From positions 3,330 to 67,329 of the forward strand of contig CAZNZQ010000003.1 in the NCBI GenBank assembly GCA_964577675.1: a DNA stretch of 64,000 nt, given 5' to 3'. The DNA is from an uncultured Candidatus Saccharibacteria bacterium. Its GTDB lineage: Bacteria; Patescibacteriota; Minisyncoccia; Phycocordibacterales; UBA5272. Both the position numbers and the translations under genes were made by a program. This document shows, in pieces, positions 36,101 to 61,148 of this stretch; the first letter of the stretch is position 1, and each line of letters starts with the position of its first letter. The notes below the pieces were generated by a model. The model searched no databases and was not told where the DNA came from. It worked only from the letters and a program-made list of their open reading frames with translations.

Positions 36101-36117
36101 ATCATAACAAAATTGTC

Positions 36118-37449: not shown

Positions 37450-37837
37450 AATTCAAGATCAATTCCTAGAAGAGCTTGCGAAAGTGCCAATAGTACAAAT
37501 TGCTTGTGAAAAGTGTAGTTTATCTCGCAATAGTATCTATCGTTGGAGAAAAGAAGATAAAGTGTTTGAAAAGAAAATGGATGAAGCATTATCAAGTGGT
37601 GTTGCTTTTGTGAATGATATGAGTGAATCACAATTACTTACCCTTATCAAAGAGAAGAGTTACTCAGCTATCTCTTTTTGGCTTCGTCATAGAAATGATA
37701 ACTACAAAGATAAAATTGAAATTACTACAAAAGAAGAAAGTGGGGAACTTTCTCCTTCTCAAGCAAAAATTGTAAGACATGCCCTTAAGTTAGCTTCAAT
37801 TACAAAACAGAAATCTATTAGAAAAATTAATAAATAA
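37436..37837 (+). CDS. Putative phage terminase small subunit (HTH)
   Basis: 134 aa with an HTH-like CSLSRNSIYRWRKED, immediately upstream of terL; start chosen at the internal Met (ORF 37406..37837). Confidence 0.45.
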   Translation: MKKNKIQDQFLEELAKVPIVQIACEKCSLSRNSIYRWRKEDKVFEKKMDEALSSGVAFVNDMSESQLLTLIKEKSYSAISFWLRHRNDNYKDKIEITTKEESGELSPSQAKIVRHALKLASITKQKSIRKINK

Positions 37838-37842
37838 CAAGT

Positions 37843-39345: not shown

Positions 39346-39346
39346 T

Positions 39347-39808
39347 TTAGTGGTTTACACTATAGCCATTATCACTAGCCCATTCCTCAACTGCATCTTC
39401 AATCAAAGATGAATCTATTTCTACATCCCAGTATCCATCCGAACCGTACCCATCTCCTGTTCCATCAGAATTTAATTCTGCATTGACGTATATGTAACCT
39501 CCGTTTGGAAAATGGATTGATTCAACTTCGCCATTTGAAATATCTGCATCTAATGTGTAATAGCCATTACTCTTATGCGAGTACACTTCAACACTTTCAG
39601 TTCCATTGATGTATTCCTTGATCTCATCCCAGTGCTCATCTAAAGCATCATCATAATTGATACTTCTTTCCTTGGAATATCTAGTTGGGGGTTCTTGTTT
39701 ATATTCTGTTTTATAAGAATTATAATTAGTTTTTACTTCTTCTTTTCCAGAATTATGAAATACGGCACTACCAACTATAAGGAGAATAATTATGATAATT
39801 GTAGGCAT
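39347..39808 (-). CDS. Hypothetical secreted/membrane-anchored D/G/Y-rich protein
   Basis: N-terminal hydrophobic anchor IIIIILLIVGSAVF; no motif. Confidence 0.35.
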   Translation of the reverse strand: MPTIIIIILLIVGSAVFHNSGKEEVKTNYNSYKTEYKQEPPTRYSKERSINYDDALDEHWDEIKEYINGTESVEVYSHKSNGYYTLDADISNGEVESIHFPNGGYIYVNAELNSDGTGDGYGSDGYWDVEIDSSLIEDAVEEWASDNGYSVNH

Positions 39809-39870
39809 AATATTTTTAGAATTATAATTACATAAGCTGACATATTAAACCTATTCTACATCTAACTAGA

Positions 39871-41208: not shown

Positions 41209-41555
41209 ATTATATTAATGACAGAGATCACTAGTCTTGCTAAGTCTATGCAGAACTAAAAAAGACGACATTATGAGATTAGGAAGTTACCTACAAAAAC
41301 ACCTTAGCAAAAGACCTTTTATGCGATATAATCAATAGATTAATACAAGAGTATTAAGACGGAACAATTTGCAGTAGCCTAAACCATTGGTTTCCAATGG
41401 CATGGTGAATTAAGTCTAATCAAAGCCAAAAAACCCATCATGTGGGATTTGCTTTGATTAGCCATACCTGGAAACGGGTATGGAGGTCGCAAGACCTCAC
41501 TCACGTGGTGGGCTTTTTGCTTTCCATAAGAGTTTTACCCAAATATAAAAACTTT

Positions 41556-42422
41556 ATGAATATTTTAAAAAAGATACTTTACGGTATAGGAGGGTTATGT
41601 ACATTATTTGTTATTACAGCACTCATCGTTCCGACTCCTAAAAAAGAGGAATCAGTTGCAATTGTAACAACAGCGACAACGACTAAAGAAAAAGAAGTAG
41701 TAGCTACTACAACTAAACCAGTTGTACTTGATAAAAAAGTAGCAGTAACTCAAGCAGTAGTTACAGTTCCAAAAACTGATTCTCAATATACTTATTATTC
41801 TATTACTGATGTCGTAGATGGCGACACAGTTAAGATAAATATTAATGGCACAATCGAAACTTTACGTCTAATTGGTTTAGATACTCCTGAAACTGTTGAT
41901 CCAAGAAAGGAGGTCCAGTGTTTTGGTAAAGAAGCTTCTAATAAAGGAAAGGAGTTACTTACTGGTAAAAAGGTAAGACTTGAAAAAGACACTACTCAAG
42001 GAGAAAAGGATAAGTACGGAAGAACGCTAGCGTATATCTATACTGAAAGTGGAATCTTTTATAACAAGTATATGATCGAACAAGGATATGCTCATGAGTA
42101 TACATATAACTCTGCGTATAAGTATCAAGCAGAATTTAAACAAGCTGAGAAAACTGCTGAAGCAAACAAAGTAGGACTTTGGTCACCAAGTACTTGTAAT
42201 GGCGTTACAACATCAGCACCTAAAACAACTCAAACGACCACATCTACTACTCAAGTCTCTGGGAAATACTACACTTCTTCTGCTTCTAATGCCACAAGAT
42301 ACTACCCTGATACATGCCCAGCGTGGCAAGATCTTTCAAAGTCTAATTTGAGGACATTCAACTCACTTGATGAATTGCTCGCTGTGTATCCTAAGAGAAC
42401 TATTGCTGATAGTTGTAAGTAA
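41556..42422 (+). CDS. Membrane-anchored thermonuclease (SNase-family) with Thr-rich linker and C-terminal extension
   Basis: VVDGDTVKI...LRLIGLDTPET...GRTLAYIY SNase motifs; N-terminal TM; probable start at the internal Met (ORF 41442..42422). Confidence 0.7.
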   Translation: MNILKKILYGIGGLCTLFVITALIVPTPKKEESVAIVTTATTTKEKEVVATTTKPVVLDKKVAVTQAVVTVPKTDSQYTYYSITDVVDGDTVKININGTIETLRLIGLDTPETVDPRKEVQCFGKEASNKGKELLTGKKVRLEKDTTQGEKDKYGRTLAYIYTESGIFYNKYMIEQGYAHEYTYNSAYKYQAEFKQAEKTAEANKVGLWSPSTCNGVTTSAPKTTQTTTSTTQVSGKYYTSSASNATRYYPDTCPAWQDLSKSNLRTFNSLDELLAVYPKRTIADSCK

Positions 42423-42486
42423 AAAAGAAAGCTATTATTTTAAGGTAAAATTTGATAAAATAGCAAGAACAATTTAATAAAACTTT

Positions 42487-43005
42487 ATGGTCACACTATA
42501 CCCCTTAAATACTATTTTAACGGTCGGACTTGTAACAGTTTTTCTCTTTCTCCTGCTTCCTCTCATCTTTAATAAGCGTAGACACAAAAGCGGTACAGAT
42601 AAATTTGAAGAGCTGTATAAAAAAATTAGTGAGGATATCAAATATTCTGTAGCTCCAAAGTTTATAGAATTATCACAAGAAACAAATGATCTTTTCGATC
42701 TCTCCGTTGAGATTTGGCGAATGGAACAACGCATTATTAAATCTTCTTCTGACTTACCAGAGAATCAACTTAAAGGGTTAGAAAATTCTATACAAAAACT
42801 AAAACGATATATTGGTAGATACGATATTGAAGTAGTGGATTATAAAAATGTGAAATACAATGAAGGTCTTAACCTTGAAGTTCTGTCTATAGAAAAAGAT
42901 TCTTCACTATCTGAATCAATTATAAAGGAGACGGTCGAGCCGACGGTTATGCATAAAGGTCAGGTGGTTCGTAAAGCAAAGGTAATTTTAATAAAAAATA
43001 ATTAG
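42487..43005 (+). CDS. GrpE-like nucleotide-exchange-factor domain protein with N-terminal TM anchor
   Basis: TM at residues ~10-30, coiled region, C-terminal HKGQVVRKAKVILI resembling the GrpE beta-domain signature (G..lR.A.V.V); sits directly upstream of the Hsp70-like gene. Confidence 0.4.
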   Translation: MVTLYPLNTILTVGLVTVFLFLLLPLIFNKRRHKSGTDKFEELYKKISEDIKYSVAPKFIELSQETNDLFDLSVEIWRMEQRIIKSSSDLPENQLKGLENSIQKLKRYIGRYDIEVVDYKNVKYNEGLNLEVLSIEKDSSLSESIIKETVEPTVMHKGQVVRKAKVILIKNN

Positions 43006-43011
43006 GACTCT

Positions 43012-45525
43012 ATGTCTAACCAACAAAATATTTCAATAGGTATCGATCTTGGAACAACTAATTCGTCTATTGCAATAAATAACAATGGCAATATTGAGAT
43101 TGTAAAAAAAGCGGGAGGAGTAGAGTACACTCCGTCAGTTTTTGGTTTCAATAAAGCTGGCAATAAGGAGGTTGGACAAAAAGCTTACGACAGTTTTTAC
43201 AAAAGCCCTTCAGAAGAAGATACAAAAAACTATAAGACTGAAATTAAGAGACTGATGGGTACTTCAGAATCTTTTTACTTTGAGAGAGCAAATACAAAAA
43301 TGGGACCAGAAGAAATATCTGCTGAAATTCTAAAGAGTTTAAAAGAGGATGTACTAAGAAAATACCCAGACTTTAATACTATTTCTGCTGTAATAACCGT
43401 CCCTGCAGCTTTTTCTGTCTTGCAATCAGAAGCAACAAAGCGAGCAGGAAATCTTGCTGGATTTAAACACGTTGTTTTGCTACAAGAACCAATCGCTGCC
43501 GCTGTTGCTTATGGATTCACAAACATTAAAAATGAGAACTGGCTTATTTATGATCTTGGGGGTGGTACATTTGACGTTGCGTTAGTTGCCTCAAAAGATA
43601 GAGCCCTGTCAGTACTTGGACATAACGGAGATAACTTTCTTGGTGGTAAAAATTTCGACTTGGAAATTGTAGATAAAGTAATTGTGCCAAAGATTTTGGA
43701 AAAGTTTACTATCAGTAATTTTAATAGAGGTAATGAAAAATATAAAGGAGTATTTTCACAATTAAAATTCTTTGCTGAAACAGCAAAGATTGAACTTTCT
43801 GAGTATGAAAAAACTTCAATCATGGTAGAAAATATTGGAAAGGATGATAATGGAGATGAAATTTTTCTAACCATCAATTTTTTGAGAAAGGACTTTGAAA
43901 ATCTAATCAAACCCATGATTGATCGTACTATTGAGCTTTCAAAAGAAACCCTTAAGGATGCAGGAATTAAAAGTAGCTCCGTTACAAGAGTCGTTCTTGT
44001 TGGTGGACCAACTCAGATTCCTTATATCAGAGAAAGAATAGAAGGAGACCTTAAAGTTATAGCAGATGCAACGGTAGACCCTCTTACTGTTGTTGCAAGA
44101 GGAGCTTGTGTTTTCGGAATTGGTCAAAAAATTCCAAAAGAATTTACAGAAGTTTCTTCTTCAAAAATTGATGAGGGTGTGATTCAAATTAATCTTAACC
44201 ATGAATCGCTCACATCAGATACTGAAGAAACAGTTAGTGGTATCATTGATGACTTAAAAGAATCAAGTGACGAATACTACGTACAGATACAATCAGATAG
44301 TGGTTTTTATAATGGTTCAAAGATTAAGTTAAAAAATGGTAAATTTTTTGACACCGTATCTGTTGAGCAAAATAAATCAAATGTTTACTGGGTCTACCTA
44401 TTTGATAAGGAAGGAAATTCTACTCCTATCAGTCCAGACTCATTTATGATTACACATGGGCTTTCAGTTTCGGGTGCTCCTTTACCTCATTCGATAGGTG
44501 TTATTGTTGCTAAAAAAGATCATGTGAGAAATATTGCCTCAAATGTATGCGAAATTATTTTTGAAAAAGGATCTATTCTTCCCGTAAAAAAAGTTATTGA
44601 TGTATACAAAACATCAAGAAAACTTAAGAAAGGAGAAGATAATAATTTAGATATTACGGTTGTTGAGGGCGAATCTGATATTCCTGATCGTAACTCATAT
44701 TTATGTGATTTAGGTATAAACGGTAAGGATTTACCTCACGATCTTCCAGAAGGAACCCCATTAGAGATATCTATAGAGATGAATGAGTCTCGTGAAGTCA
44801 AAGTTACTACATATATCCCTTTAATTGATATGACTTTTAATGCTCGTTCTACCATGCAAGATGAGTCCGTTGAAGTAAAAACCATCGAGTATGATTTAAA
44901 AGTTCAAACTGAAAGAGCTCAGACCGTTTCTGAGAATTGCTCTAGTGAAGAAAAGAATAAACTCAATACTACAATTAACTCAGTAGCAAATAGTCTAAAA
45001 GGTGCCCATGTTGATGAAGATGAAAAACGCAAAGCAAATAAACAACTTAAGGATCTAAAGGTATCAATTGATCAGCTTGAAAAGGAAAAAGAGATGCCGC
45101 AGTTGATTAATGAGTTTAATGAGAGCTTTGCAAAAGTTCAAAAAATAATAATTGATCTTGGTAATGATAAAGATAAGGTTCAACATGAAGAGCGTCTTAA
45201 AAAGATGAAAGAAGAGGGAGACAAAGCAATATCTGAAAATGATAGTGTTCTCTTAATGAGAGTAAATGAACAGATCGGTGAGCTAGGAACTAAAGCAGTA
45301 TTCTCAAATCCTGCGGCTTGGGTCTACCAATTTGGTCAGATTACGAATGGTAGTAAAAAGTTTATTAATGAAAAAGAAGCTGAATATTATACAGAAAAAG
45401 GAAAGCGTGCAATTGAGCTTAGTGACACCGAGGAACTAAAACGGTGTGTTCATAATTTATTACTTCTTCTTCCTTCTGATAGTTATGAGGGTCCGAAAAA
45501 TCATCTTTCGGGTATATCACGATAA
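43012..45525 (+). CDS. Non-canonical Hsp70-family ATPase (837 aa)
   Basis: Hsp70 NBD motifs IGIDLGTTNSSIA, DLGGGTFDVALV, VVLVGGPTQIPYIRE. The ~450-aa C-terminus is not a canonical DnaK substrate-binding domain/lid. Confidence 0.7.
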   Translation: MSNQQNISIGIDLGTTNSSIAINNNGNIEIVKKAGGVEYTPSVFGFNKAGNKEVGQKAYDSFYKSPSEEDTKNYKTEIKRLMGTSESFYFERANTKMGPEEISAEILKSLKEDVLRKYPDFNTISAVITVPAAFSVLQSEATKRAGNLAGFKHVVLLQEPIAAAVAYGFTNIKNENWLIYDLGGGTFDVALVASKDRALSVLGHNGDNFLGGKNFDLEIVDKVIVPKILEKFTISNFNRGNEKYKGVFSQLKFFAETAKIELSEYEKTSIMVENIGKDDNGDEIFLTINFLRKDFENLIKPMIDRTIELSKETLKDAGIKSSSVTRVVLVGGPTQIPYIRERIEGDLKVIADATVDPLTVVARGACVFGIGQKIPKEFTEVSSSKIDEGVIQINLNHESLTSDTEETVSGIIDDLKESSDEYYVQIQSDSGFYNGSKIKLKNGKFFDTVSVEQNKSNVYWVYLFDKEGNSTPISPDSFMITHGLSVSGAPLPHSIGVIVAKKDHVRNIASNVCEIIFEKGSILPVKKVIDVYKTSRKLKKGEDNNLDITVVEGESDIPDRNSYLCDLGINGKDLPHDLPEGTPLEISIEMNESREVKVTTYIPLIDMTFNARSTMQDESVEVKTIEYDLKVQTERAQTVSENCSSEEKNKLNTTINSVANSLKGAHVDEDEKRKANKQLKDLKVSIDQLEKEKEMPQLINEFNESFAKVQKIIIDLGNDKDKVQHEERLKKMKEEGDKAISENDSVLLMRVNEQIGELGTKAVFSNPAAWVYQFGQITNGSKKFINEKEAEYYTEKGKRAIELSDTEELKRCVHNLLLLLPSDSYEGPKNHLSGISR

Positions 45526-45530
45526 AATAT

Positions 45531-46991
45531 ATGTCTTCAATTTTAAAAAACAATGCTTACCACATTCTAGGACTAGAAACCTCTGCTAGCGAAAAGGATA
45601 TCCTGAAACGTTCAAAAGAAATGATTAACCGTCTTAAGGTTGATGATATTCCTGAATACGATTTAGATTTTAATTCATTGGAAAAACTTCGTACAGAAGA
45701 TGGAGTAAAAGATGCCTTAAGAAGACTTCAAGCTCCAAAAAAGAAGATCGAGGAATATTTCTTTTGGTTTCAAATAGCAGACGGAATAGACGAACAAGCA
45801 TTGGATTTTATTAAGCTTAAAAAATATACAGAGGCTATTGATACTTGGGAAAATGTGTCTAACGGTCAAAGTACAAAAGCATTTTTCTATAAAAAGAATC
45901 TTGCGGTTCTCTACTGCTTATTACTTTCTAATGAAGATAATACTGCTTATTTTCATAGCTCATTAGTTATATGGAAAGAACTAGTAGAATCAGAAAAATT
46001 CTGGGCTTCTTTTTCAAAAGTTTATAAACTGCATGATGAGCAAACAGCTAGTGAAGATATTATTAATGACTTCAAAAAACATATAGTAAAATCTCTTGCT
46101 GATATGTATACGGAGTTACATCATGCTCATAAAAATAATGATTACATCAGTGAGTTTCAGAAAGTTTTTTCAATAAAAGGAGGTAAGGCTGAGGAAAGTG
46201 TCTTGGGTCCAGTTTACCAAATAATTAATGATTCAACAGAGAAGCTAGAAAAACTGAAAGTCAGTGAAGATGGGATTCTTGACGCAGAAGAGAAGAAAAT
46301 TATAAAAGAGTCTATTAGGTTGATTCGACAAGAATTAAATAAATTAATTGACCTTGGTTTATATGAAGATAGTCAAACAAAAGTTATACGAGATAGAGTG
46401 GCAGATGTTTTAAGAAGTCTTAGTATCGACTTGCATAATAATTTAAATGAAACTGAGGTTGCATTAGGTCTCGCTAAAATAGCTGAAGAAATTTCAGGTA
46501 CAGGAGACTCTAAAAGTAAGATACAGGCTGATATTGCTACTTTACAGGGAAATCTTGAATATATAGCTAAAGAAGGTAATTTTAATAAAATTGTTGATCC
46601 AATTATGGCTGACATTAAGTCAGGTAATTCAGATAAGGCTATAGCTAAGATTAATGAATATATTTATAAAGCTGATACAGATCAAGAGTTAAAGAAAATT
46701 TTAACAGAAGTAAAAAGTACTCTAGAAGAACGAATAGTACAGCATGGTAAACCAATTAGCAGTGCCCCTTCTATGTTTTCTATTAATGGTGTTGGTACAA
46801 AGGTTTATGGAGATACCTTGTACTTCGTAGTATTGTTTATTCCTCTTTGCCCAATTTCAAGATATTCACTAACTAATAACAAAGATGGGAGTTTTAATTT
46901 TCATGGAAAACTTGAATTAAAACAATGGCAGACTTATTGGAAGTATTGTTTTATTGGTGTGATTATAATTTGGGTTCTATCTTCTCTTTAA
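45531..46991 (+). CDS. J-domain-like protein lacking the HPD motif, C-terminal TM segments
   Basis: NAYHILGLETSASEKDILKRSKEMINRLKVDDIPE has J-domain helix I-II organisation, but HPD is replaced by DDIPE. C-terminal hydrophobic stretches. Confidence 0.35.
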   Translation: MSSILKNNAYHILGLETSASEKDILKRSKEMINRLKVDDIPEYDLDFNSLEKLRTEDGVKDALRRLQAPKKKIEEYFFWFQIADGIDEQALDFIKLKKYTEAIDTWENVSNGQSTKAFFYKKNLAVLYCLLLSNEDNTAYFHSSLVIWKELVESEKFWASFSKVYKLHDEQTASEDIINDFKKHIVKSLADMYTELHHAHKNNDYISEFQKVFSIKGGKAEESVLGPVYQIINDSTEKLEKLKVSEDGILDAEEKKIIKESIRLIRQELNKLIDLGLYEDSQTKVIRDRVADVLRSLSIDLHNNLNETEVALGLAKIAEEISGTGDSKSKIQADIATLQGNLEYIAKEGNFNKIVDPIMADIKSGNSDKAIAKINEYIYKADTDQELKKILTEVKSTLEERIVQHGKPISSAPSMFSINGVGTKVYGDTLYFVVLFIPLCPISRYSLTNNKDGSFNFHGKLELKQWQTYWKYCFIGVIIIWVLSSL

Positions 46992-46995
46992 AAAT

Positions 46996-47592
46996 ATGTC
47001 AGAACATTTAAATTTTGAAACAGACTTTTTGGATAAAAGCTCTCCTGTAAAAAAGAATCACCCTCAGAAAACCCACACTCCTGATAAGGAGAGTACGGGT
47101 TCATATAATTGGAAAAAGATTTTATGGATTGGAGGAGGAGTGTTATTCTTTATTTTTATAATTGCTTCTGACGATGGTAGTTCAAGTAGCACACCTGCTG
47201 CTTCTAATTCAAATAGTTATAAACCAACATCTAATCTAAATTCCTCTGATGAAGTTGCTACAGGTCAGTATATTTGTTCACGTTCCAACCATACACGAGC
47301 CGGTGAGCTTGAACCGAGTGAGTTTGAAAAAAATAGCTTAGAATCTGAAAAGAATCAACTCTCATCTGAGACTGATAGTTTATCATCAGAAAAAAGCCAA
47401 TTAGAAAATGAGTATGTAGACGAATCAGACCAGTCTGCAATTGATACCCATAATTCAGCTATAGACGATTTAAATAGTAGACTGTCTTCTTACCGTGCTA
47501 GACGTTCACAATATTCTGCTTCTATTGATGCTTATAATGCTAAAGTTGATACATATAATAGCTTTTTAACTCAGAACTGTAGACCAAAATAA
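46996..47592 (+). CDS. Hypothetical single-pass membrane protein with Ser-rich and coiled-coil regions
   Basis: TM ILWIGGGVLFFIFIIA, then S-rich segment and heptad-like SLESEKNQLSSETDSLSSEKSQLENEY. Confidence 0.4.
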   Translation: MSEHLNFETDFLDKSSPVKKNHPQKTHTPDKESTGSYNWKKILWIGGGVLFFIFIIASDDGSSSSTPAASNSNSYKPTSNLNSSDEVATGQYICSRSNHTRAGELEPSEFEKNSLESEKNQLSSETDSLSSEKSQLENEYVDESDQSAIDTHNSAIDDLNSRLSSYRARRSQYSASIDAYNAKVDTYNSFLTQNCRPK

Positions 47593-47598
47593 TTTACC

Positions 47599-48678
47599 AT
47601 GACAACACCAACAAAACCAATTCTTCATAATGGATTTAAAGTACAAAATGATATTGTAGTTAAAAGTAGAATTGAACGTATATTCTTCACTGAAGTGTAT
47701 CTACTTTCTAATGAGAAGTTTTTATATATTTTTACTAATCTTAATCCAGAAGAAATTGTAGATCGAGGAGAGAAATATAATTTAATTACTATTGATATAG
47801 TTGGTAAAAGATACTTAGGTGTAATGACTGATAGTCATTCTAATGAAAATATTAGCGATATAGTAGACGATCTTACAGTACTACGTGGACTTGATTGTGT
47901 TGCAGGTATGAAGCCTCTTAAGGATTTACTCTTTAACGAGGTAATCGGTCCTTTGCTTAACCCAGAAAAGTATCAAAAGTTTAAAGTTGGAATACCAAAC
48001 GGAATACTTCTTTTTGGTCCTCCTGGATGCGGTAAGACGTTCATTGTTAAAAAATTAGCTGAGGAACTTGGCTATAATTTTATTGAAATGGCACCATCAT
48101 CTGTTGCTACTTCCTATGTACATGGAGCGGTTGGTAATATAGGTAAAGTCTTTGAGATGGCAAGACTTCAAGCACCGTCAATAGTTTTTATCGATGAAAT
48201 AGAAGGACTTGTTCCAAAAAGAGAAGACCTTGGGTCTCATGCTGATACTAAAAAGGAGGAGATAAATGAATTTCTTATTCAACTAAATAATGCAGGTCAA
48301 AATAAAATCTTAGTAGTTGGGGCAACGAACAGACCACATATGATTGACACGGCCATACTTCGTGCAGGAAGAATGGATAAAAGAGTGTATGTTGGTGCAC
48401 CAGACTTTGAAGCAAGAAGAGATATGTTTAAAATATGTCTCTCGGGTCGTCCGTACGATAAGAATATTGATTTTGAGAAGCTTTCCCACATGTCAGAGAA
48501 CTATGTTGGCTCAGACATCGAACTAATCGTTACAGAGGCTTCTAGGGCAGCTATAACTCAAGACAAGAATATGGTTGATGAGGAAATGCTGGTTAATGCA
48601 ATTAAGAAGTTTAATCCTTCAATCACATCTGAAGAAATTAAATACTATACACAGTTCTCTGATCTAGAAAGATCATAA
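47599..48678 (+). CDS. AAA+ ATPase (classic AAA family) with unique N-terminal domain
   Basis: Walker A LLFGPPGCGKTF, Walker B IVFIDEIE, SRH ATNRPHMIDTAILRAGRMDKRVYVGAPD. Confidence 0.75.
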   Translation: MTTPTKPILHNGFKVQNDIVVKSRIERIFFTEVYLLSNEKFLYIFTNLNPEEIVDRGEKYNLITIDIVGKRYLGVMTDSHSNENISDIVDDLTVLRGLDCVAGMKPLKDLLFNEVIGPLLNPEKYQKFKVGIPNGILLFGPPGCGKTFIVKKLAEELGYNFIEMAPSSVATSYVHGAVGNIGKVFEMARLQAPSIVFIDEIEGLVPKREDLGSHADTKKEEINEFLIQLNNAGQNKILVVGATNRPHMIDTAILRAGRMDKRVYVGAPDFEARRDMFKICLSGRPYDKNIDFEKLSHMSENYVGSDIELIVTEASRAAITQDKNMVDEEMLVNAIKKFNPSITSEEIKYYTQFSDLERS

Positions 48679-48691
48679 TTACATAACTACA

Positions 48692-49006
48692 ATGATTACC
48701 ACCGAACAATCACATTATAGAGTCCTCTTTTCTAAAATAGCTACCATAGCATTGATGATAGCAGTTATACCAATCTGGCCGTACTTTTTTTATCAGTTCC
48801 TTAAAATTGCAATATTTGGAGCATCGGCATTTTCTGTGTACTTGTATCATAAAGAGAAAAATACAAAATGGATGATGATAATGATTGTTATTGCTATCAT
48901 CTTTAATCCAATTAACCCTCTTTATTTTGGTCACTTCCTCTGGTCAATTGTTGATATTGTTGTTGCTATTCTTTTCTTTAAATCACCCAAACCACATCAT
49001 CACTAA
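48692..49006 (+). CDS. Hypothetical small multi-pass membrane protein
   Basis: 104 aa, 3 hydrophobic segments. Confidence 0.35.
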   Translation: MITTEQSHYRVLFSKIATIALMIAVIPIWPYFFYQFLKIAIFGASAFSVYLYHKEKNTKWMMIMIVIAIIFNPINPLYFGHFLWSIVDIVVAILFFKSPKPHHH

Positions 49007-49030
49007 GGTGACTCTTAATCATCTTCATAT

Positions 49031-49438
49031 ATGTACAGTTATTTACGCAAACGCTTCTTAATGAATGGAAATGAATATAAGTTCTATAAAAAGTTAGACT
49101 CAGCTGTTGGTCTTGAATATAAAATATTACCACAAGTGCATTTTGATGAACTAGTAACTCCAACTAAAGTTTCAGGAGACCGTATTTTTTCTTTTCGACA
49201 CATAAACCAAAAATCAGTTGATTTTGTAGTGTGTAATAAAACCACTTTAGTCCCGCTAGTAGCTATTGAACTTGATGGAAAATCACACTTAAAACAAATG
49301 ACAAAAGACAGGGATGTGGAAGTTGAAAGAATACTAAAAGAGGTAAATTTACCCTTACTTCGTTTTGATAACAATAATGATATGGATATCGTTGGAATTA
49401 GAGAAATAATAAACAAGACCGTATCTTTAAAAGTCTAG
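49031..49438 (+). CDS. DUF2726-like (PD-(D/E)xK nuclease-fold) protein
   Basis: VDFVVCNKTTLVPLVAIELDGKSH, an ExD...K restriction-endonuclease-like core typical of DUF2726. Confidence 0.5.
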   Translation: MYSYLRKRFLMNGNEYKFYKKLDSAVGLEYKILPQVHFDELVTPTKVSGDRIFSFRHINQKSVDFVVCNKTTLVPLVAIELDGKSHLKQMTKDRDVEVERILKEVNLPLLRFDNNNDMDIVGIREIINKTVSLKV

Positions 49439-49446
49439 AAAATAGA

Positions 49447-49481
49447 TAAAAACCTATAGCAGAATGCTATAGGTTTTTATC
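49447..49481. terminator. Rho-independent terminator
   Basis: aaaaACCTATAGCagaatGCTATAGGTtttt. Confidence 0.7.
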
Positions 49482-49514
49482 TACAACCACAGCCTTCTCG
49501 TGCGCGCTGTTGAC

Positions 49515-49588
49515 GGTGACCCCACGGAGAGTCGAACTCCGCTTACCGGCATGAAAAGCCGATGTCCTAACCGATAGACGATGGGGCC
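49515..49588 (-). tRNA. tRNA-Glu (anticodon UUC)
   Basis: Reverse complement folds as a cloverleaf: acceptor GGCCCCA/TGGGGTC, D-arm GTC..GAC, anticodon stem TCGGC/GCCGG with loop TTTTCAT (UUC), T-arm GGAG-TTCGACT-CTCC; CCA not fully encoded. Confidence 0.8.
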
Positions 49589-49702: not shown

Positions 49703-49777
49703 GGGCGGTTAGCTCAGTTGGTAGAGCGCCACATTGACGTTGTGGATGTCAGAGGTTCGACTCCTCTATCGCCCACC
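49703..49777 (+). tRNA. tRNA-Val (anticodon GAC)
   Basis: GGGCGGTtaGCTCagttggtaGAGCgCCACAttGACgtTGTGGatgtcAGAGGttcgactCCTCTATCGCCCacc; acceptor, D, anticodon (GAC) and T arms all pair. Confidence 0.8.
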
Positions 49778-50871: not shown

Positions 50872-52599
50872 TTGCAATTTACTATACCTATGATCGTTGA
50901 CAACCAAAATATAAAAGAGATTCTCATACAAGGAAACTACATCAGCGAGGAAGACGCTAAGCGGGCTGAAGACCTGGCTAAGAAGGGGGTAATTTCTTTT
51001 GTTGATGCGCTTTTGCGTGACGGTGTGGTCAATAGCGACATTGTTGGTCAGGCGATAGCAGAGAGCTTTAAGGTGCCATACGCAGACCTGAACTCAGCAG
51101 CTATCACCGCTGAACAAATCCGTATTATCCCAGAAGAGGTGGCTAAGAGACTGCGTGTTGTGTTGTTCGATAACAACGATGAGAAAGAGGTAATTATCAC
51201 AACAGATAACCCTCAGCTAGAAGGACTTGAAAAGGAGCTCAAGGAATTATTCAAGGGGAGGAAAATAAACATCTCTTACTCTCTCTCTGATGACATTAAC
51301 AGCTTCTTCGTTCACTACCAAAAGCCACTCGATACTCGCTTTCAAAAAATTATTGAAGAGAGTGATAGAGTCGCCCCAGAAATCCTCGAAGAAATCTTTG
51401 ATGATGCTCTTACATATAAAGCGTCTGATATTCACTTTGAACCACAGGCAAAGATCGTGGTGATTCGTTTCCGCGTGGACGGAGTACTCCACGAAGCGGG
51501 GAATCTTCCAAAAGAAAACTATGAAAACGTTCTTAACCGTATCAAGGTAAAGAGTGCTCTTCGTATTGATGAACATTATGCAGCCCAAGATGGGTCACTC
51601 CACTATGACAGCAAGCTTGGTATATCAGTGGACATGCGTACATCAATCGTGCCTATAGTGGAAGGTGAGAAGGTGGTACTCCGTATCCTTGGTTCATATG
51701 TACAAGGACTTACCTTTAACGACCTCGGTCTCTCTAAGAAGAATCAAGAGCTGTTGCGTGAGGCATCAGAAAAGCCGTTCGGGATGATTCTCGTCGTTGG
51801 TCCAACTGGGTCAGGTAAAACAACTACCCTCTACTCACTTCTTAAGATGCTTAACACGCCAGATACGAACATCACAACTGTAGAAGACCCAGTGGAATAT
51901 AAAGTGCAAGGACTTAACCAGATACAGGTAACCCAAGCAACCGGGCTCACGTTTGCGCGTGGACTACGAGCGATTGTGCGACAAGACCCCGATATTATTC
52001 TCGTAGGTGAAATCCGTGACCTTGAGACTGCAGAAATTTCTGTAAACGCCGCTCTTACGGGGCACATGCTTCTGTCAACGTTCCACGCTAATGACGCAGC
52101 AACTGCGGTTCCTCGACTTCTCGACATGGGAATAGAGCCGTTCCTGCTTTCTTCTACGCTTAACGTTATTGTGGCGCAGCGACTAGTGCGAAAGATATGT
52201 GAGCACTGTAAGGTGAGCGTGGTAAAGAATGCTTCTGATTTTGATACTCCACAATTACAGGGTGTGGCAAGGCACCTAGGGAATAAAGCTATAACGTTAT
52301 ATGAAGGTAAAAAATGTGAAGCCTGCGGCTTCACTGGGTACAAGGGAAGAACTTCTATTTACGAGGTTATTAAGATTACACCCAACCTTCAAGAACTCAT
52401 TATTAAACACCCGTCTGCCCAAGAGATATGGGAGCTCGCGCGAAAGGAGGGTGCAACATCGGTGTTTGATGACGGGCTAGAAAAGGTGAAGAATGGTGTT
52501 ACCTCTATCGAAGAGCTGGTACGTATTGCACCCCCACCTGATAAGGTGTCAGATGACAAGGAAGAAACTAAGTCAAAGTCAAAGAAAGCTTCAAAATAA
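50872..52599 (+). CDS. pilB: Type IV pilus assembly ATPase PilB (GspE family)
   Basis: GspE N-domain, Walker A VVGPTGSGKTTTL, Asp-box/His-box region, C-terminal CxxC (CEHC...CEAC) zinc motif. Confidence 0.85.
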   Translation: MQFTIPMIVDNQNIKEILIQGNYISEEDAKRAEDLAKKGVISFVDALLRDGVVNSDIVGQAIAESFKVPYADLNSAAITAEQIRIIPEEVAKRLRVVLFDNNDEKEVIITTDNPQLEGLEKELKELFKGRKINISYSLSDDINSFFVHYQKPLDTRFQKIIEESDRVAPEILEEIFDDALTYKASDIHFEPQAKIVVIRFRVDGVLHEAGNLPKENYENVLNRIKVKSALRIDEHYAAQDGSLHYDSKLGISVDMRTSIVPIVEGEKVVLRILGSYVQGLTFNDLGLSKKNQELLREASEKPFGMILVVGPTGSGKTTTLYSLLKMLNTPDTNITTVEDPVEYKVQGLNQIQVTQATGLTFARGLRAIVRQDPDIILVGEIRDLETAEISVNAALTGHMLLSTFHANDAATAVPRLLDMGIEPFLLSSTLNVIVAQRLVRKICEHCKVSVVKNASDFDTPQLQGVARHLGNKAITLYEGKKCEACGFTGYKGRTSIYEVIKITPNLQELIIKHPSAQEIWELARKEGATSVFDDGLEKVKNGVTSIEELVRIAPPPDKVSDDKEETKSKSKKASK

Positions 52600-52603
52600 G
52601 TCT

Positions 52604-53932
52604 ATGCCTAAGACAACAGTATCTAAAAAAAATACCCAAGAAGAAAAGCTTAAGAAGAAGGGTGTTAAGAGTGCGGCACAGGAAGAAAAAAAAGAGGTTG
52701 CAGAAGTGACAGAAGTAGAAGATAAGACGAAAGAAAATACAGAGGAAAAGAAAGAAGAGAAAAAGGAAGAGAAAAAGGAGAAGCAAAGGGGGTCACTACA
52801 AGCGCCCATTATTTCTGAACCGGTAAAAGCTACTCCGATAGAAAGAAAAAAGGTAGAACGAAAAGCTATCTCAACATTTGGGCTCTCTAAAGAGCGCGAC
52901 CATTTCATCGAGAACTTGAGCATGCTTGTGCTTTCTGGCATGACGATTACCGAAGCACTCCGTTCTGTAGTAAAGGAGACTAAAGATGACAGGATGAAAG
53001 AAATCCTCAATCGTGTGATGGAGGATATCGAAGCAGGGTCACCAATATGGAAAGCTTTTACCGAGACGAAGCTGTTTCGTGGGTACACACTCTCGCTTAT
53101 TCGCCTCGGAGAAGAATCTGGTAAGCTCGCAGACAACTTAAAAGTGATCGCGATGCAGGAAGAAAAAGATAGAGAGTTCAAAGGTAAGGTGAAGTCTGCT
53201 CTCATGTACCCTATATTCGTGCTCTCTCTCACTGCGTTTATCGGTATCGGTATTTCGTGGCTTATTTTGCCGAAGCTTGCAAAGATCTTTACTGATCTTA
53301 AACTAGATCTCCCGCTCATCACTCGGGTGCTTATTAGTTTCGGTGAGTTTCTCAATAAACATGGACTGATAGCTGTCCCGATAGGAATGATGATTGTCGG
53401 AGGAATATTTTATATCGTCTTTGTTTACAAGAAAACGAAGATAATGGGGGAGTATATTATTTTTGCCATCCCGGGGATCAAGACGCTCATGGGGGAAATC
53501 GAAGTAGCTAGGTTCGGGTACCTCTTGGGTACTCTCTTAGACGCAGGTCTCCCGATAACAAGAGCTATCGAATCGCTAGAGAATGCAACAGAAACCGCTA
53601 GGTATAAGAGATTTTATGCGCATCTAAGAGAATCGGTCGATATGGGGAATTCTTTCCAGAAGAGTTTTGAGTCGTATGCAAAAATAAGAAAAATAATACC
53701 ACAGTCTGTAGAGCAGCTCGTGGTCTCGGGCGAACAATCAGGGAATTTAGTGAAGACACTCATGAAGGTAGGACAGGTGTTAGAAGCTAAGTCAGATCAG
53801 ACCACCAAGAACCTGACCATTATTATGGAGCCGATTCTGCTTGTGATCGTGTGGGCAGGTGTTGTCACCGTTGCATTCGCTGTTATCCTTCCAATCTATA
53901 GTCTTGTAGGAGGGCTTAATCAATTCCAATAA
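52604..53932 (+). CDS. pilC: Type IV pilus platform protein PilC (GspF family) with Lys/Glu-rich N-terminal low-complexity extension
   Basis: Two GspF repeats, 3 TM. The N-terminal ~70 aa is KKEEKKEEKKEKQ-type low complexity. Start placed at the Met just after the pilB stop (ORF begins 52493). Confidence 0.75.
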   Translation: MPKTTVSKKNTQEEKLKKKGVKSAAQEEKKEVAEVTEVEDKTKENTEEKKEEKKEEKKEKQRGSLQAPIISEPVKATPIERKKVERKAISTFGLSKERDHFIENLSMLVLSGMTITEALRSVVKETKDDRMKEILNRVMEDIEAGSPIWKAFTETKLFRGYTLSLIRLGEESGKLADNLKVIAMQEEKDREFKGKVKSALMYPIFVLSLTAFIGIGISWLILPKLAKIFTDLKLDLPLITRVLISFGEFLNKHGLIAVPIGMMIVGGIFYIVFVYKKTKIMGEYIIFAIPGIKTLMGEIEVARFGYLLGTLLDAGLPITRAIESLENATETARYKRFYAHLRESVDMGNSFQKSFESYAKIRKIIPQSVEQLVVSGEQSGNLVKTLMKVGQVLEAKSDQTTKNLTIIMEPILLVIVWAGVVTVAFAVILPIYSLVGGLNQFQ

Positions 53933-58921: not shown

Positions 58922-60436
58922 TTAAACTCCCTTTATTATCTGTATATCAGCACCGATGCTATTCAAGCGTTCTGCGATATCAGCGTAGCCTCGCTTAATA
59001 GAGTAGACGTTTCGCAAAAGAGATTCTCCTTCTGCTGCCAGCATGGCAATAAGAATAATCGCTGCTGGGCGAAGAGCTGGAGGTGAGACGATCTGAGTGC
59101 CGCGAAGCGTTTTAACCCCAGTGACGAGGGCTCTATGTGGATCAAGTAGCTTAATATCTGCACCCAACCTATTAAGCTCAGTGAAGTAAATAGCTCGGTT
59201 TTCCCATGTCCAGTCGTGGATGAGTGTTTGTCCTTCCGCAAAACATGTTATCGGCACGAAAAAAGGAAGGTTGTCATTGTTAATTCCTGGGAATGGCTGT
59301 GTATGAATTTTGTCGTGCGGAGCAGTGAGTGAAGAAGGGGAGATGGTGATATCTACAAGCCTGGTCCTCTCATTCTTAGCGTAATATTCTTTGCTTTTTT
59401 TAAACCGGAGCCCTATGCGCTTTAGCTTCTCAAGTTCTAGTGTCAAAAACTCTATAGGGCAACGCTTGATGCTGAGGGTGGATTTTGTAACCACGCCTGC
59501 CGCAATAAAGAACATGCTCTCAATAGGGTCTTCTGAGTTATAGTGCTCAATATTAGTGGCGATATCGGCTACACCGTGTACGGTGAGAGTAGTTGTTCCG
59601 ATACCCTCTATTTTCACTCCCATTTTTTCTAGCAAAAAACATACGTCCTGGACCTGGTAGTTAGGTGGGGCGAATTGAATTATTGTTTTACCTGGAATTT
59701 TGGCAGCAGCAATGAGAGCGGTAATTGCCCCTGTGTCAGAAGACTCATAGAGGGGGATAGTTCCAGGGTGTAGTTTTTTGTGTGAGATGACATAGTGATC
59801 ACTCTTTGTTTCAATTGATACACCTAGGTATTCAAGTGCATACTTGTGAGATGCGACAGTTCTTTCTCCCATCTTACAGCCGCCAGAGTGTGGCAGATGA
59901 AATGTTTCTGCATAGTGTATGAAAGCCCCTGCGAACGTAAATGAGCGGATTCTCTCAGCAACGCCTTTATTCATCTTAGAAAGTAAAAATTTCTTCGGTG
60001 GGGTGATTTCGAGCGCAGTATCACTGTGCGCCCATTTGATAGTAACACCCACACTCTCTAGTAACTCTTTATACCTATGTACTTCTTCGATGTGGGGGAT
60101 ATCTCGTAGGGTTGTGGTGCCACGGTTAACGAGAGCTGCTACCATCATGTTGACCGCACCATTTTTGGACGGGTTAGTTACAATCTCTCCGTGCAGTTTT
60201 TTACCCCCTTTTACCTTAAAGTCTATAGTGTCTTGGATGGAGACAATATTATGGTTGAGGACCCCGCTCATTTTCATGAGTTGATCAATGGTGACGTTTT
60301 GATTCCCAGACTCAATACGAGCGACAGCAGACTGTGATGTTTTGAGACGTTTAGCGAATTCACCCTGAGTAATCCCTTTTTCTTCTCGAAGTTTTTTAAT
60401 AAAAAGCCCTATTTTTTCTTGATCAGATGATGGCAT
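58922..60436 (-). CDS. murA: HTH_XRE DNA-binding domain fused to UDP-N-acetylglucosamine 1-carboxyvinyltransferase (MurA)
   Basis: N-terminal ~70 aa Cro/C1 HTH (KGITQGEFAKRLKTSQSAVARIESG). The remainder aligns with E. coli MurA: EIVTNPSKNGAVNMMVAALV vs [20 protein letters not shown]; catalytic-Cys loop LPHSGGCKMGERTV vs LPGGCTIGARPV; C-terminal RGYADIAERLNSIGADI vs RGYERIEDKLRALGANI. Confidence 0.8.
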   Translation of the reverse strand: MPSSDQEKIGLFIKKLREEKGITQGEFAKRLKTSQSAVARIESGNQNVTIDQLMKMSGVLNHNIVSIQDTIDFKVKGGKKLHGEIVTNPSKNGAVNMMVAALVNRGTTTLRDIPHIEEVHRYKELLESVGVTIKWAHSDTALEITPPKKFLLSKMNKGVAERIRSFTFAGAFIHYAETFHLPHSGGCKMGERTVASHKYALEYLGVSIETKSDHYVISHKKLHPGTIPLYESSDTGAITALIAAAKIPGKTIIQFAPPNYQVQDVCFLLEKMGVKIEGIGTTTLTVHGVADIATNIEHYNSEDPIESMFFIAAGVVTKSTLSIKRCPIEFLTLELEKLKRIGLRFKKSKEYYAKNERTRLVDITISPSSLTAPHDKIHTQPFPGINNDNLPFFVPITCFAEGQTLIHDWTWENRAIYFTELNRLGADIKLLDPHRALVTGVKTLRGTQIVSPPALRPAAIILIAMLAAEGESLLRNVYSIKRGYADIAERLNSIGADIQIIKGV

Positions 60437-60500
60437 ATGAATGGCAGTATATCATATATGATATATTCTTTGACAAGAGATAAGTCGTAGCTCATATTAT

Positions 60501-61148
60501 TTATTTTTTGATAACCAAGAATATGATCCAAGAAGCAAGGACGAAAAGAAAAACAGTCCCAAGATAAGAGATGATAGTCATGCCTAAGAAGTATGTAACC
60601 ATCCCCCAAAATGATGACCAGAGCACTGTGGCAATAGTGGAGTAGAGCAGGAAGTGTGAAAAGGGTGTACGCAGTATTCCTGCACTAGTAGCGACCAGGG
60701 TGCCAAGGTTAGGCTGCCAGTAGGAAAAGAAAATACTTTTGCACAGATGTTTTTCTACCCCAGGTTTCACTTCTTCTAAAGCTCCCTTTAGTCCAAAACG
60801 AGTAAAAAGTCTGTACCATCCGAATCTTCCCAAGAAGTAGTTGATGGTATACGCTAACAAGAATCCAAGAATCGTAGCTCCTACAGAATATACAGCAAGC
60901 AATGCATTGTTAGCGGAAAGGATAACACCCAAAAAAACAACAAGCCCGCCAGGAAGATACCATCCTACAACTAGTAACCCTTCGATCAGCGCCGCAAGGA
61001 AAACCGTAATGACGCCATACTCTAGGTAATATGTTCTTATTGTTTCGATTAACTTTTGCTCTTCAAATGTCGGGAATAGTTGCCTTAGCAATAAAAGGAA
61101 GCAGAAGACTCCAAGAATGATAAGTGGGAGCTGTATCCTTTTAAGCAT
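60501..61148 (-). CDS. DedA/TVP38-family membrane protein
   Basis: Multi-TM; GWYLPGG and LVATSAGILRTPF motifs resembling DedA. Confidence 0.5.
   Translation of the reverse strand: MLKRIQLPLIILGVFCFLLLLRQLFPTFEEQKLIETIRTYYLEYGVITVFLAALIEGLLVVGWYLPGGLVVFLGVILSANNALLAVYSVGATILGFLLAYTINYFLGRFGWYRLFTRFGLKGALEEVKPGVEKHLCKSIFFSYWQPNLGTLVATSAGILRTPFSHFLLYSTIATVLWSSFWGMVTYFLGMTIISYLGTVFLFVLASWIIFLVIKK

Follow-up and report, generated by a model that had tools for sequence, protein, structure and literature searches.

Architecture of HTH-murA

The HTH-murA gene occupied positions 58922..60436 on the minus strand of the window (the whole 64-kb stretch of DNA that was analyzed) and comprised 504 codons plus a stop codon, beginning with ATG. 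It was a single, unbroken open frame and was monocistronic within the window. An XRE/Cro-C1-type helix-turn-helix domain (Pfam HTH_3, PF01381) was readily detected by HMM at residues 13-61 (60254..60400, minus strand), scoring 47.4 bits against a cut-off of 23. Helices were predicted at residues 5-19, 24-31, 35-42 (helix 3) and 50-60, and the recognition-helix segment S34-Q-S-A-V-A-R-I-E42 was encoded at 60311..60337 (minus strand). A linker at residues 62-72 (60221..60253, minus strand) preceded the first MurA strand; the pLDDT of the AlphaFold model fell below 50 at residues 66-68, indicating that the linker is probably flexible. The MurA (UDP-GlcNAc enolpyruvyl transferase) domain followed at residues 73-504 (58925..60220, minus strand), and the EPSP_synthase profile (Pfam PF00275) matched residues 75-491 with 138.9 bits and was covered end to end (1-417 of 417 positions). 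The first-pass annotation had described a Cro/C1-type HTH joined to a full-length MurA that retains its catalytic Cys, and the Pfam, NCBIfam and PDB matches within the one ORF bore this out.

An assembly or sequencing artifact joining a small XRE regulator to murA could in principle produce the same picture. However, a continuous ORF of about 504 aa with both domains was present in 120 of the best 120 homologue clusters, which were drawn from NCBI, JGI, ENA and Logan assemblies. Query residues 1-504 were aligned throughout in 80 species-level genome loci, and about 70 metagenome contigs carried the ORF, as did RefSeq genomes of cultured Nonomuraea, leaving an artifact with a negligible probability. 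A frameshift separating the XRE regulator from murA was ruled out by the continuous ORF in hundreds of independent assemblies. When databases were searched for the HTH-MurA architecture, hundreds of clusters of proteins showed the same fusion, both in Patescibacteria and in cultured Nonomuraea. The fusion had been called unusual for this enzyme; that description fits MurA in general but not Patescibacteria, across which the fusion is the common form.

The MurA domain

MurA is UDP-N-acetylglucosamine 1-carboxyvinyltransferase (EC 2.5.1.7), the first committed enzyme of peptidoglycan synthesis. The NCBIfam MurA model NF006873 matched residues 73-501 with 312.3 bits (cut-off 297), whereas the scores for the equivalog models TIGR01072 (291.5 vs. 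392.7 bits) and NF009470 (219 vs. 552 bits) were below threshold. PDB MurA chains were aligned over residues 73-503 with E values down to 7e-46. The AlphaFold (AF2) model had a pLDDT of 89.8; its top Foldseek matches were 43 MurA structures (TM 0.85-0.91, normalized to target), which ranked above NikO and AroA. The Cys loop read H-S-G-G-C187-K-M-G-E-R192 and had a low pLDDT, as expected of a mobile loop. Cys187 (codon 59876..59878, minus strand) is the equivalent of E. coli MurA Cys115, the catalytic and fosfomycin-target residue, and was invariant within G-G-C-K-M-G-E-R across 79 orthologues.

Like canonical MurA (E. coli, PDB 1UAE), the protein has the Cys115 loop and the phosphate-binding triad K22/R120/R397 together with N23, R91, D305, R331 and R371, and its predicted fold is that of a two-lobed enolpyruvyl transferase (TM about 0.9). 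It differs in that its MurA domain is only about 26% identical to the E. coli enzyme, in the additional N-terminal 70-residue HTH, in the missing Asp369 equivalent and in the score below the TIGR01072 cut-off. The equivalents of K22, N23, R91, C115, R120, D305, R331, R371 and R397 (E. coli numbering) were invariant in the 79 orthologues, and over more than 190 fused sequences all catalytic or ligand residues other than Asp369 were present, invariant or nearly so. The ten-position active-site signature of the window protein was kept in 113 of 120 more distant proteins, 108 of which were scored as HTH-fused. The position of Asp369 read Pro-Pro-Ala (S-P-P-A-L-R-P), and all of the fused family, along with stand-alone sister sequences, had Pro/Ala there. 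Judging from the intact active site, the C-terminal 430 residues are probably a working MurA, belonging to a separate subfamily with no counterpart of Asp369.

The missing Asp369 equivalent and the low TIGR01072 score would also suit a protein that acts purely as a transcription factor, in which the MurA-like domain is a ligand-sensing pseudoenzyme and a working MurA is encoded elsewhere in the genome. A minority clade of HTH-fused relatives has in fact lost the catalytic loop while keeping the HTH and the operator described below; these proteins are clearly non-catalytic and coexist with a separate murA. However, a pseudoenzyme would not be expected to keep the other catalytic and ligand residues in more than 190 fused sequences, and the Ala369 subfamily also has stand-alone members with no HTH (P0121, P0123, P0124, L136-L167). 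E. coli MurA D369N occurs in viable fosfomycin-resistant clinical isolates (PMC4790336), indicating that Asp369 is not strictly needed for MurA function. The first-pass annotation had also raised the question of a stand-alone murA. The search took in the whole 64-kb window and, at each locus, at most 6 kb on either side, and to that extent allows for a copy elsewhere. Within this range neither the window nor the 850 kb of flanking sequence contained a second murA, and a separate murA flanked 0 of about 160 intact fused loci in both sets. A separate murA adjoined the fused gene only where the fused copy had lost Cys115/R120, and there (L083-86, L088) it was found in the flank at every locus. 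In addition, the divergent partner gene of many fused loci, murB, uses the product of MurA. Taken with the conserved residues, this makes the pseudoenzyme explanation unlikely for the intact copies.

Gene neighborhood

The genes for PilB (50872-52599), PilC (52493-53932) and pilins (up to 58141) lay near HTH-murA. Between these pilus genes and HTH-murA was a convergent histidine-kinase gene, which ended 3 nt past the HTH-murA stop codon. On the other side, a DedA/VTT gene ended 64 nt upstream of HTH-murA, a position unique to the window among the loci compared. The reported adjacency to a type IV pilus locus was therefore correct as to position, since PilB, PilC and pilins are nearby, but pilus synteny was found in only 13-24 of 80 loci, all from close relatives. 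A functional link between HTH-murA and the type IV pilus was rejected on that ground.

No other mur genes were found in the 64-kb window. Among deeper lineages, murB is the neighbor that is both conserved and informative. It adjoined HTH-murA and was divergent from it in 29 intact fused loci, with start codons a median of 37 nt apart. This median is the robust value for the spacing; the operator palindrome contains CAT, so that some automatic murB starts fall inside it, and intergenic values of 16-24 nt are artifacts.

A predicted operator on the HTH-murA promoter

A perfect 18-bp palindrome, TATATCATATATGATATA, was found at 60448..60465, ending 11 nt upstream of the ATG. Its half-sites, ATATCA and TGATAT, are 10 bp apart center to center, and no further copy was present in the 64-kb window at up to 3 mismatches. 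Of 78 upstream regions of orthologues, 76 contained an operator-like site in which 13 or more of the 18 positions matched, and the information content was 1.4-2 bits across the 18-mer compared with about 0-0.6 bits in the flanks. In the first set of loci, the degenerate motif occurred 74 times directly upstream of HTH-murA and once elsewhere in 850,513 bp, with 0-1 occurrences in shuffled sequences. In an independent second set, 46 occurrences were upstream of HTH-murA and 2 elsewhere in 573,544 bp. Overall, the operator was found upstream of HTH-murA in about 90% of 150 fused loci and was nearly absent elsewhere in 1.4 Mb. These counts were made with the strict pattern, because a relaxed 16-mer was too permissive (40 off-target matches). 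The operator was retained at 29-48% protein identity, Nonomuraea included. In about 10% of fused loci it was degenerate or missing (e.g., L089 and L094), and no recognizable operator was found upstream of the L089 gene (P0141). The three off-gene matches lay upstream of a Nudix-like ORF beside an amidase (L053:9948), upstream of a 145-aa ORF without known function (L098:7736), and at L093:9415.

The palindrome overlapped a putative promoter. Its last 4 nt together with CT form a -10-like hexamer, TATACT (60446..60451, minus strand), which lies 9 nt before the ATG and was assigned from this geometry. No Shine-Dalgarno motif was found between the hexamer and the ATG, which together with the short distance suggests a leaderless or near-leaderless mRNA. 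The same arrangement recurred across species: the operator ended within 20 nt of the start codon in 64 of 76 loci, none of these leaders contained an SD-like motif, and CT or AT directly followed the operator in 51 of 76 loci, yielding TATACT or TATAAT. A weak -35-like element, TTGTCA (60471..60476, minus strand), was tentatively read from the sequence 19 nt upstream of the -10-like hexamer. A simple sigma-70 scan with a 16-18 nt spacer rule made no minus-strand promoter call at HTH-murA, so that the promoter is assigned from geometry and from conservation between species; the 19-nt spacer is outside the rule of the scan, and Patescibacteria promoters are uncharacterized. In many lineages the operator was centered in the divergent murB/HTH-murA region of about 37 nt, which in L053 was a 40-nt perfect palindrome.

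Co-variation of the recognition helix and the operator

Residue 34 of the recognition helix (Ser or Thr) co-varied with an operator base (T or G), and residues 37/39 also co-varied with operator bases. The operator TATAGC..GCTATA was accompanied by Thr34 at 13 of 13 loci, in separated clades, and was found at none of the loci with Ser34 or Ala34. The pairing was repeated in the second set (8/12 vs. 0/48, Fisher p = 1.9e-7), in which a second co-varying pair, the helix SQSSIPR with the operator ATCTC..GAGAT, was also observed. These data leave room for a recognition code in which residue 34 may correspond to operator position 5 and residues 37/39 to operator position 4.

An AT-rich palindrome that overlaps a -10-like box could owe part of its conservation to promoter function, and it might serve as an element of the promoter or of an RNA, or be bound by another regulator, with the fused HTH acting elsewhere or binding no specific DNA. 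However, symmetric changes in the half-sites co-varied with residues 34 and 37/39 in two independent sets. Sixty of 67 fused loci carried the operator, compared with 0 of 10 relatives lacking the HTH, although these relatives need a promoter too. The operator also traveled with the fused gene into a high-GC actinomycete. An AT-rich 18-bp palindrome without a loop would presumably form a poor RNA hairpin, and a terminator scan at the HTH-murA gene detected no terminator-like site. We therefore regard these other explanations of the palindrome as very unlikely. The 18-bp palindrome is very probably the target of the fused HTH on the gene's own promoter, as predicted from its position and co-variation. 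The autoregulation suggested in the first-pass annotation is thus supported by sequence comparison, since the promoter of the gene has a conserved palindrome, the predicted operator, whose variants change together with the recognition helix of the HTH.

Proposed mechanism

Taking these results together, we consider it likely that HTH-MurA is a bifunctional "trigger enzyme", both a competent MurA and, through its HTH, a repressor of its own promoter acting via TATATCATATATGATATA. Architecture, intact active site, operator position, specificity, conservation and helix co-variation all support this reading at the level of sequence comparison; from them we infer repression by binding and dimerization of HTH-MurA. 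The XRE-type HTH would bind TATATCATATATGATATA, most likely as a dimer. Because the palindrome overlaps the -10 region of the putative leaderless promoter, bound HTH-MurA would cover that region and repress its own synthesis. In lineages with a divergent murB, the palindrome is central in the shared region of about 37 nt, and one bound dimer would silence both genes and with them the first two committed steps in making peptidoglycan precursors. MurA is generally regarded as a monomeric enzyme, and the need of a palindromic operator for a dimer is in tension with this; the AlphaFold monomer model gave no confident docking of the HTH on MurA and no dimer interface.

DNA binding may in turn be tuned by the ligand that occupies the MurA domain (UDP-GlcNAc, or UDP-MurNAc, a known feedback ligand of MurA). 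A hint of such control is that Cys-less HTH-MurA-like paralogues have survived, which keep the fold, the HTH and the operator and lie beside murA-murB. A further, more tentative reading, which we hold to be possible rather than probable, is that HTH-MurA by itself provides feedback control over the supply of peptidoglycan precursors, an arrangement that would be ancestral to much of Patescibacteria. The MurA body would sense the UDP-sugar pool, for example with UDP-MurNAc as a co-repressor locking the closed state, and would set transcription of murA and divergent murB from a symmetric, back-to-back pair of leaderless promoters. In lineages that gained a foreign murA, the fused copy would then have become a pseudoenzyme acting as sensor and regulator for the mur cluster.

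Comparison with known systems

BirA (biotin ligase and bio repressor), PutA (proline dehydrogenase and put repressor) and NadR are bifunctional enzyme-repressors, or trigger enzymes. HTH-MurA resembles them in that a metabolic enzyme and a DNA-binding domain that would target the promoter of its own pathway are joined in one polypeptide; as far as can be read from sequence, both domains are intact and the operator lies on its own promoter and, in relatives, on a promoter shared with murB. The ligand state of BirA controls its DNA binding, and a similar control is proposed here by analogy. HTH-MurA differs from BirA and PutA in its enzyme (MurA), in its pathway (peptidoglycan precursors) and in its XRE HTH fold, in place of the winged HTH of BirA and the ribbon-helix-helix of PutA.

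The closest solved relatives of the HTH (E about 1e-4 to 1e-5) were dimeric operator binders of the XRE family, namely restriction-modification controller C-proteins (e.g., PDB 3CLC), SinR, HipB and 434 Cro/repressor; MBF1 was also among the nearest. HTH-MurA shares with C-proteins, SinR, HipB and 434 Cro/repressor the place of the recognition helix and an inverted-repeat operator that overlaps the promoter, with half-sites one helical turn apart. However, those XRE binders are small stand-alone proteins or have dedicated dimerization domains, whereas the HTH of HTH-MurA is tethered to a 430-residue enzyme. The HTH region also matched NF006015/PRK08154 ("anaerobic benzoate catabolism transcriptional regulator", E = 1.2e-5), a family with an N-terminal XRE HTH fused to shikimate kinase. 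This family is likewise an XRE HTH on a metabolic enzyme but has a different enzyme domain, and we know of no conserved autoregulatory operator or catalytic/pseudoenzyme split described for it.

MurA in Firmicutes is controlled by ClpCP proteolysis via ReoM/ReoY and the PrkA/PASTA kinase. That control serves the same goal, flux at the first committed step, but is post-translational and uses separate proteins, whereas control by HTH-MurA would be transcriptional and built into the enzyme. UDP-MurNAc binding and feedback inhibition are established properties of MurA and could supply the signal; 3SWD and 3SU9, among the structural matches, are UDP-MurNAc-bound "dormant" MurA. To our knowledge, there is little documentation of transcriptional control dedicated to the committed step in peptidoglycan synthesis, and the MurA controls known to us are proteolytic or allosteric. 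A full-text literature search found nothing on an HTH-MurA fusion or on MurA as its own repressor. What appears to be new here is the conserved predicted operator upstream of HTH-murA: repression seems to be exerted by the enzyme itself, its predicted operator is clearly defined, and changes in protein-DNA recognition can be read from the sequences. The putative circuit spans a large share of the Candidate Phyla Radiation, whose members have very small genomes with few regulators and have seen hardly any experimental genetics, and it offers a concrete and testable regulatory circuit for uncultured bacteria. If true, a simple and evolvable recognition code would let regulons be predicted across thousands of uncultured species.

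Cys-less relatives and Nonomuraea

Probably active fused enzymes and catalytically dead regulators are both labeled plain MurA in databases, a point for correction, and the family appears to grade naturally from bifunctional enzymes to regulators that are pseudoenzymes. The fused gene and its operator were also found in Nonomuraea (protein WP_214634277.1), a high-GC actinomycete, where the copy appears to have been horizontally acquired and may serve as an inhibitor-responsive backup MurA. Since Nonomuraea is cultivable, its module makes direct experiments feasible.

Domain organization and active site of HTH-MurA

The HTH-murA gene (58922-60436, minus strand) was a single, uninterrupted ORF of 504 aa. 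In Pfam, residues 13-61 matched the XRE-type HTH_3 domain well above its cut-off (47.4 vs 23 bits), and residues 75-491 matched a full-length EPSP_synthase/MurA-type domain. The NCBIfam MurA model NF006873 matched residues 73-501 (312 bits; cut-off 297), residues 73-503 aligned with solved MurA structures with E values down to 7e-46, and the catalytic loop read H-S-G-G-C187-K-M-G-E-R192, showing that the first-pass annotation had correctly described an XRE HTH and a complete MurA with its catalytic Cys loop in one ORF. The protein fell below the cut-off of the stricter equivalog TIGR01072 (291 vs 393 bits), and NCBIfam held no dedicated HTH-MurA model, the best matches being generic MurA models. 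The AlphaFold2 model, built with 132 sequences, was confident (pLDDT 89.8, pTM 0.82), with HTH helices predicted at residues 5-19, 24-31, 35-42 and 50-60; the linker at 61-69 was of low confidence, and the MurA body was complete, its Cys loop mobile. When this model was searched with Foldseek, 43 MurA chains ranked on top (target-normalised TM 0.85-0.91) and NikO and AroA ranked lower. Assignment of the N-terminal domain to the XRE HTH family was supported. Assignment of the protein to MurA was well supported, Asp369 and the equivalog cut-offs being the exceptions.

When aligned with E. coli MurA (from NC_000913; 26% identity), the equivalents of K22, N23, R91, C115, R120, H125, D231, D305, E329, R331, L370, R371 and R397 were invariant in 79 orthologues. 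Of 120 more distant proteins, 113 shared a ten-position active-site signature with these orthologues, and 108 of the 113 scored as HTH-fused. The Asp369 equivalent was absent in the family, the region reading S-P-P-A-L-R-P. Its replacement was shared by the stand-alone sister sequences P0121, P0123, P0124 and P0144, indicating a subfamily trait within MurA that is independent of the fusion. According to a review, D369N has been reported in MurA from fosfomycin-resistant clinical isolates of E. coli (PMC4790336); Asp369 is therefore not strictly essential.

Distribution of the fusion

The best 120 homologue clusters, from NCBI, JGI, ENA and Logan assemblies and comprising Paceibacterota, Parcubacteria and Nomurabacteria MAGs, all encoded proteins of about 504 aa with both domains (77-100% identity). 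In 80 species-level reference genomes the ORF aligned across residues 1-504 of the query (59-93% identity). An assembly or sequencing artefact was rejected on the basis of this identical architecture, the continuous ORF recurring in many assemblies with no frameshift. A search of 50%-identity representatives returned fused proteins at 29-48% identity together with close relatives without the HTH, and a search seeded with a distant member added 120 further proteins from Liptonbacteria, Taylorbacteria, Colwellbacteria, Doudnabacteria and others, 113 of which scored as HTH-fused in a motif test. All of these were named plain 'UDP-N-acetylglucosamine 1-carboxyvinyltransferase' by the naming sources. 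One fused cluster of 246 members came from the cultured genus Nonomuraea (Actinomycetota), where RefSeq names the protein MurA or 'helix-turn-helix domain-containing protein'. HTH-MurA architectures were thus numerous in Patescibacteria MAGs and also present in a cultured genus; the fusion, called unusual for this enzyme in the first-pass annotation, was not rare among relatives.

HTH-less sequences were interspersed among fused ones in a rough neighbour-joining tree, tentatively suggesting that the HTH was lost secondarily and repeatedly. The Nonomuraea protein nested inside a Patescibacteria clade in the same crude tree, and in Nonomuraea sp. NEAU-A123 (JAHFZZ010000002.1, 6001-8605) the genes next downstream encoded a phage-integrase-family protein and a small XRE protein, tentatively suggesting that the whole regulator-operator module reached this genus by horizontal transfer. 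A 529-aa homologue (P0126) carried a 70-residue N-terminal extension resembling a decayed HTH with no Pfam match, possibly an intermediate in HTH loss. A 1204-aa protein (P0183), with a MurA-like domain at residues 756-1200, was a different fusion. The MAG CAYWEW01 contained two fused copies on separate contigs (82% and 78% identity to the query), each with its own operator, which points to a mixed bin or to a genuine duplication.

A predicted palindromic operator upstream of HTH-murA

A perfect 18-bp palindrome, TATATCATATATGATATA (60448-60465), was located 11 nt upstream of the HTH-murA ATG as a predicted operator; the window held no further copy with up to 3 mismatches. When the upstream regions of 80 orthologous loci were aligned at their start codons, the palindrome was conserved and the surrounding sequence was variable; a site with at least 13 of 18 matching positions was present in 76 of 78 loci. 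The 160 nt upstream of the fused genes contained the degenerate motif 74 times and the remainder of the 850,513 bp a single time, compared with 0-1 occurrences in shuffled sequence. A second, independent collection of 80 loci from metagenomes (49-64% identity; 573,544 bp) contained the strict motif 46 times upstream and twice at other positions. Information content was 1.4-2 bits over the 18-mer but fell to about 0-0.6 bits on either side. Of 67 fused loci, 60 carried the motif, whereas all 10 HTH-less relatives lacked it, several of their genes directly following a tRNA gene; in about 10% of fused loci the operator was degenerate or unrecognisable. Very distant fused genes were preceded by the same element, which read ATCTCATATGTGAGAT in high-GC Nonomuraea (48% identity), ATATCATATATGATAT in L083 and L084 (36-39%) and ATATCAGATATGATAT in L087 (29%).

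Rare extra copies lay at a distance from the fused gene in relatives. One (L053, 9948-9965) abutted a Nudix-like ORF (9393-9947, minus strand) adjoining a predicted cell-wall amidase with a peptidoglycan-binding domain (9967-11193); another (L098, 7736-7751) lay 62 nt upstream of a 145-aa ORF (7237-7674, minus strand). These genes may be additional regulon members. In one clade with the helix T-S-Q-S-A-I-N-R-I-E (L139, L150, L151, L157, L165, L168), a second operator-like site, ATATCAG(C/T)CT(T/A)GA(T/G)AT, lay within the HTH coding region at exactly +142 from the start codon, reading ATATCAGCCTTGATAT in four of these six. The site may serve as an auxiliary operator, or it may arise simply because a conserved peptide is encoded in an AT-rich genome.

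At 64 of 76 loci no more than 20 nt, and mostly 8-12 nt, separated the end of the palindrome from the start codon; these 64 short leaders all lacked an SD-like motif. CT or AT directly followed the operator in 51 of 76 loci, converting its outer TATA into TATACT or TATAAT, which we infer to be a -10 box overlapping the operator and driving a leaderless mRNA. Because of this presumed overlap, bound HTH-MurA would block RNA polymerase. A -35-like TTGTCA in the window had a 19-nt spacer. A simple sigma-70 scan called no promoter at HTH-murA.

Operator variants changed symmetrically in both half-sites and in step with the recognition helix. All 13 loci with a TATAGC..GCTATA operator had Thr34 (K-T-T-Q-S) and none had Ser34 or Ala34, and these Thr34/G-C pairs occupied separated clades in a rough tree of MurA domains. 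In the metagenome set, G was present in both half-sites at 8 of 12 Thr34 loci vs 0 of 48 Ser34 loci (Fisher p = 1.9e-7), and a second pair combined an ATCTC..GAGAT operator with the helix S-Q-S-S-I-P-R. Residue 34 caps the recognition helix (35-42) predicted in the AlphaFold2 model. The nearest solved HTH relatives were dimeric operator binders (controller C-proteins, SinR, HipB), which, together with the co-variation, provides strong indirect evidence that the HTH reads the palindrome. The possible autoregulation put forward in the first-pass annotation is backed by this conserved, co-varying predicted operator at the gene's own putative promoter.

Gene neighbourhood

No other mur genes were found in the window. 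The adjoining pilus locus noted in the first pass was present, but like the histidine-kinase, Nramp, TfoX and ABC neighbours it was common only to closer relatives. A DedA/VTT-domain membrane protein gene (60501-61148, minus strand) lay immediately upstream of HTH-murA and had no counterpart in the flanks of 80 orthologous loci. The next genes (Nramp, TfoX_N, ABC ATPase) were syntenic in 30-37 of these loci, so the DedA gene appears to be a lineage-specific insertion unique to the window. At 29 intact fused loci of deeper lineages, murB lay immediately upstream on the opposite strand, with a median of 37 nt between the start codons and the palindrome central, as in CAT-attgcaat-TATATCATATATGATATA-aaatgctagac-ATG; at L053 the entire divergent region was a 40-nt perfect palindrome. 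From this central position, one dimer would control two back-to-back leaderless promoters in these lineages and so govern the first two committed precursor steps.

Cys-less forms and stand-alone MurA

A minority of proteins (P0132, P0133, P0134, P0136, P0141, P0179, P0198 and a few more) kept the HTH and had lost Cys115, R120 and other PEP-binding residues. The operator or a close variant was upstream in four of five inspected Cys-less loci (P0136 and P0198 were outside this count); none was seen upstream of P0141 (L089). P0132, P0133 and P0134 lay in mur clusters ordered murB-murA, divergent HTH-pseudoMurA, then ddl or a Mur ligase. A second MurA-like gene was present in the flank at every inspected Cys-less fused locus, whereas no stand-alone murA was found in the window or in the flanks of about 160 catalytically intact fused loci. 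The separate murA was of a divergent type (25-27% identity to the fused MurA domain). This pattern fits a history in which the intact fused protein is the cell's MurA and arrival of a foreign murA turned the fused copy into a dedicated regulator, suggesting a sensing role for the MurA fold. The stand-alone proteins at L083 (95-1411), L084 (4624-5940) and L088 (3768-5126) had intact Cys115 and R120, with G-I-I-Q in place of the D369-L-R371 motif and Gly at R331; Patescibacteria appear to conserve the textbook set of MurA active-site residues less strictly.

Proposed role of HTH-MurA

We propose HTH-MurA as a trigger enzyme that would make enolpyruvyl-UDP-GlcNAc and, as a dimer, would repress its own promoter and, in relatives, murB. 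The simplest consequence would be homeostatic control of the MurA level. Enzyme-repressor fusions are a known kind, including BirA, PutA and NadR. If BirA is a guide, DNA binding may be modulated according to whether the ligand state of the MurA body is open or closed. MurA enzymes bind UDP-MurNAc tightly, and UDP-MurNAc complexes of MurA were among the Foldseek matches. A full-text literature search found no described MurA example of such a fusion.

Other features of the window

A low-GC block (30000-49500; 0.32-0.37 vs 0.41-0.45 elsewhere), closed by tRNA genes at 49517-49588 (minus strand) and 49703-49775 (plus strand), looked like an integrated mobile defence island. It encoded a SMODS nucleotidyltransferase (33733-34719), an N6/N4 DNA methylase (36181-37449), a DEAD/ResIII helicase (37843-39345), a large serine recombinase (39871-41208), an Hsp70-like protein of 837 aa (43012-45525) and an AAA ATPase (47599-48678). 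Within this block and beside the recombinase, a LOOT RNA (41376-41498, plus strand; Rfam RF03000, 91 bits vs a gathering score of 46) overlapped the beginning of a staphylococcal-nuclease-domain ORF (41442-42422). A large surface-polysaccharide cluster (400-27100) encoded RmlA/B/D-like enzymes, several family-2 glycosyltransferases, four methyltransferases, a Wzx/MurJ-like flippase (17376-18659) and a 736-aa Wzy_C/O-antigen-ligase-like protein (24881-27091).
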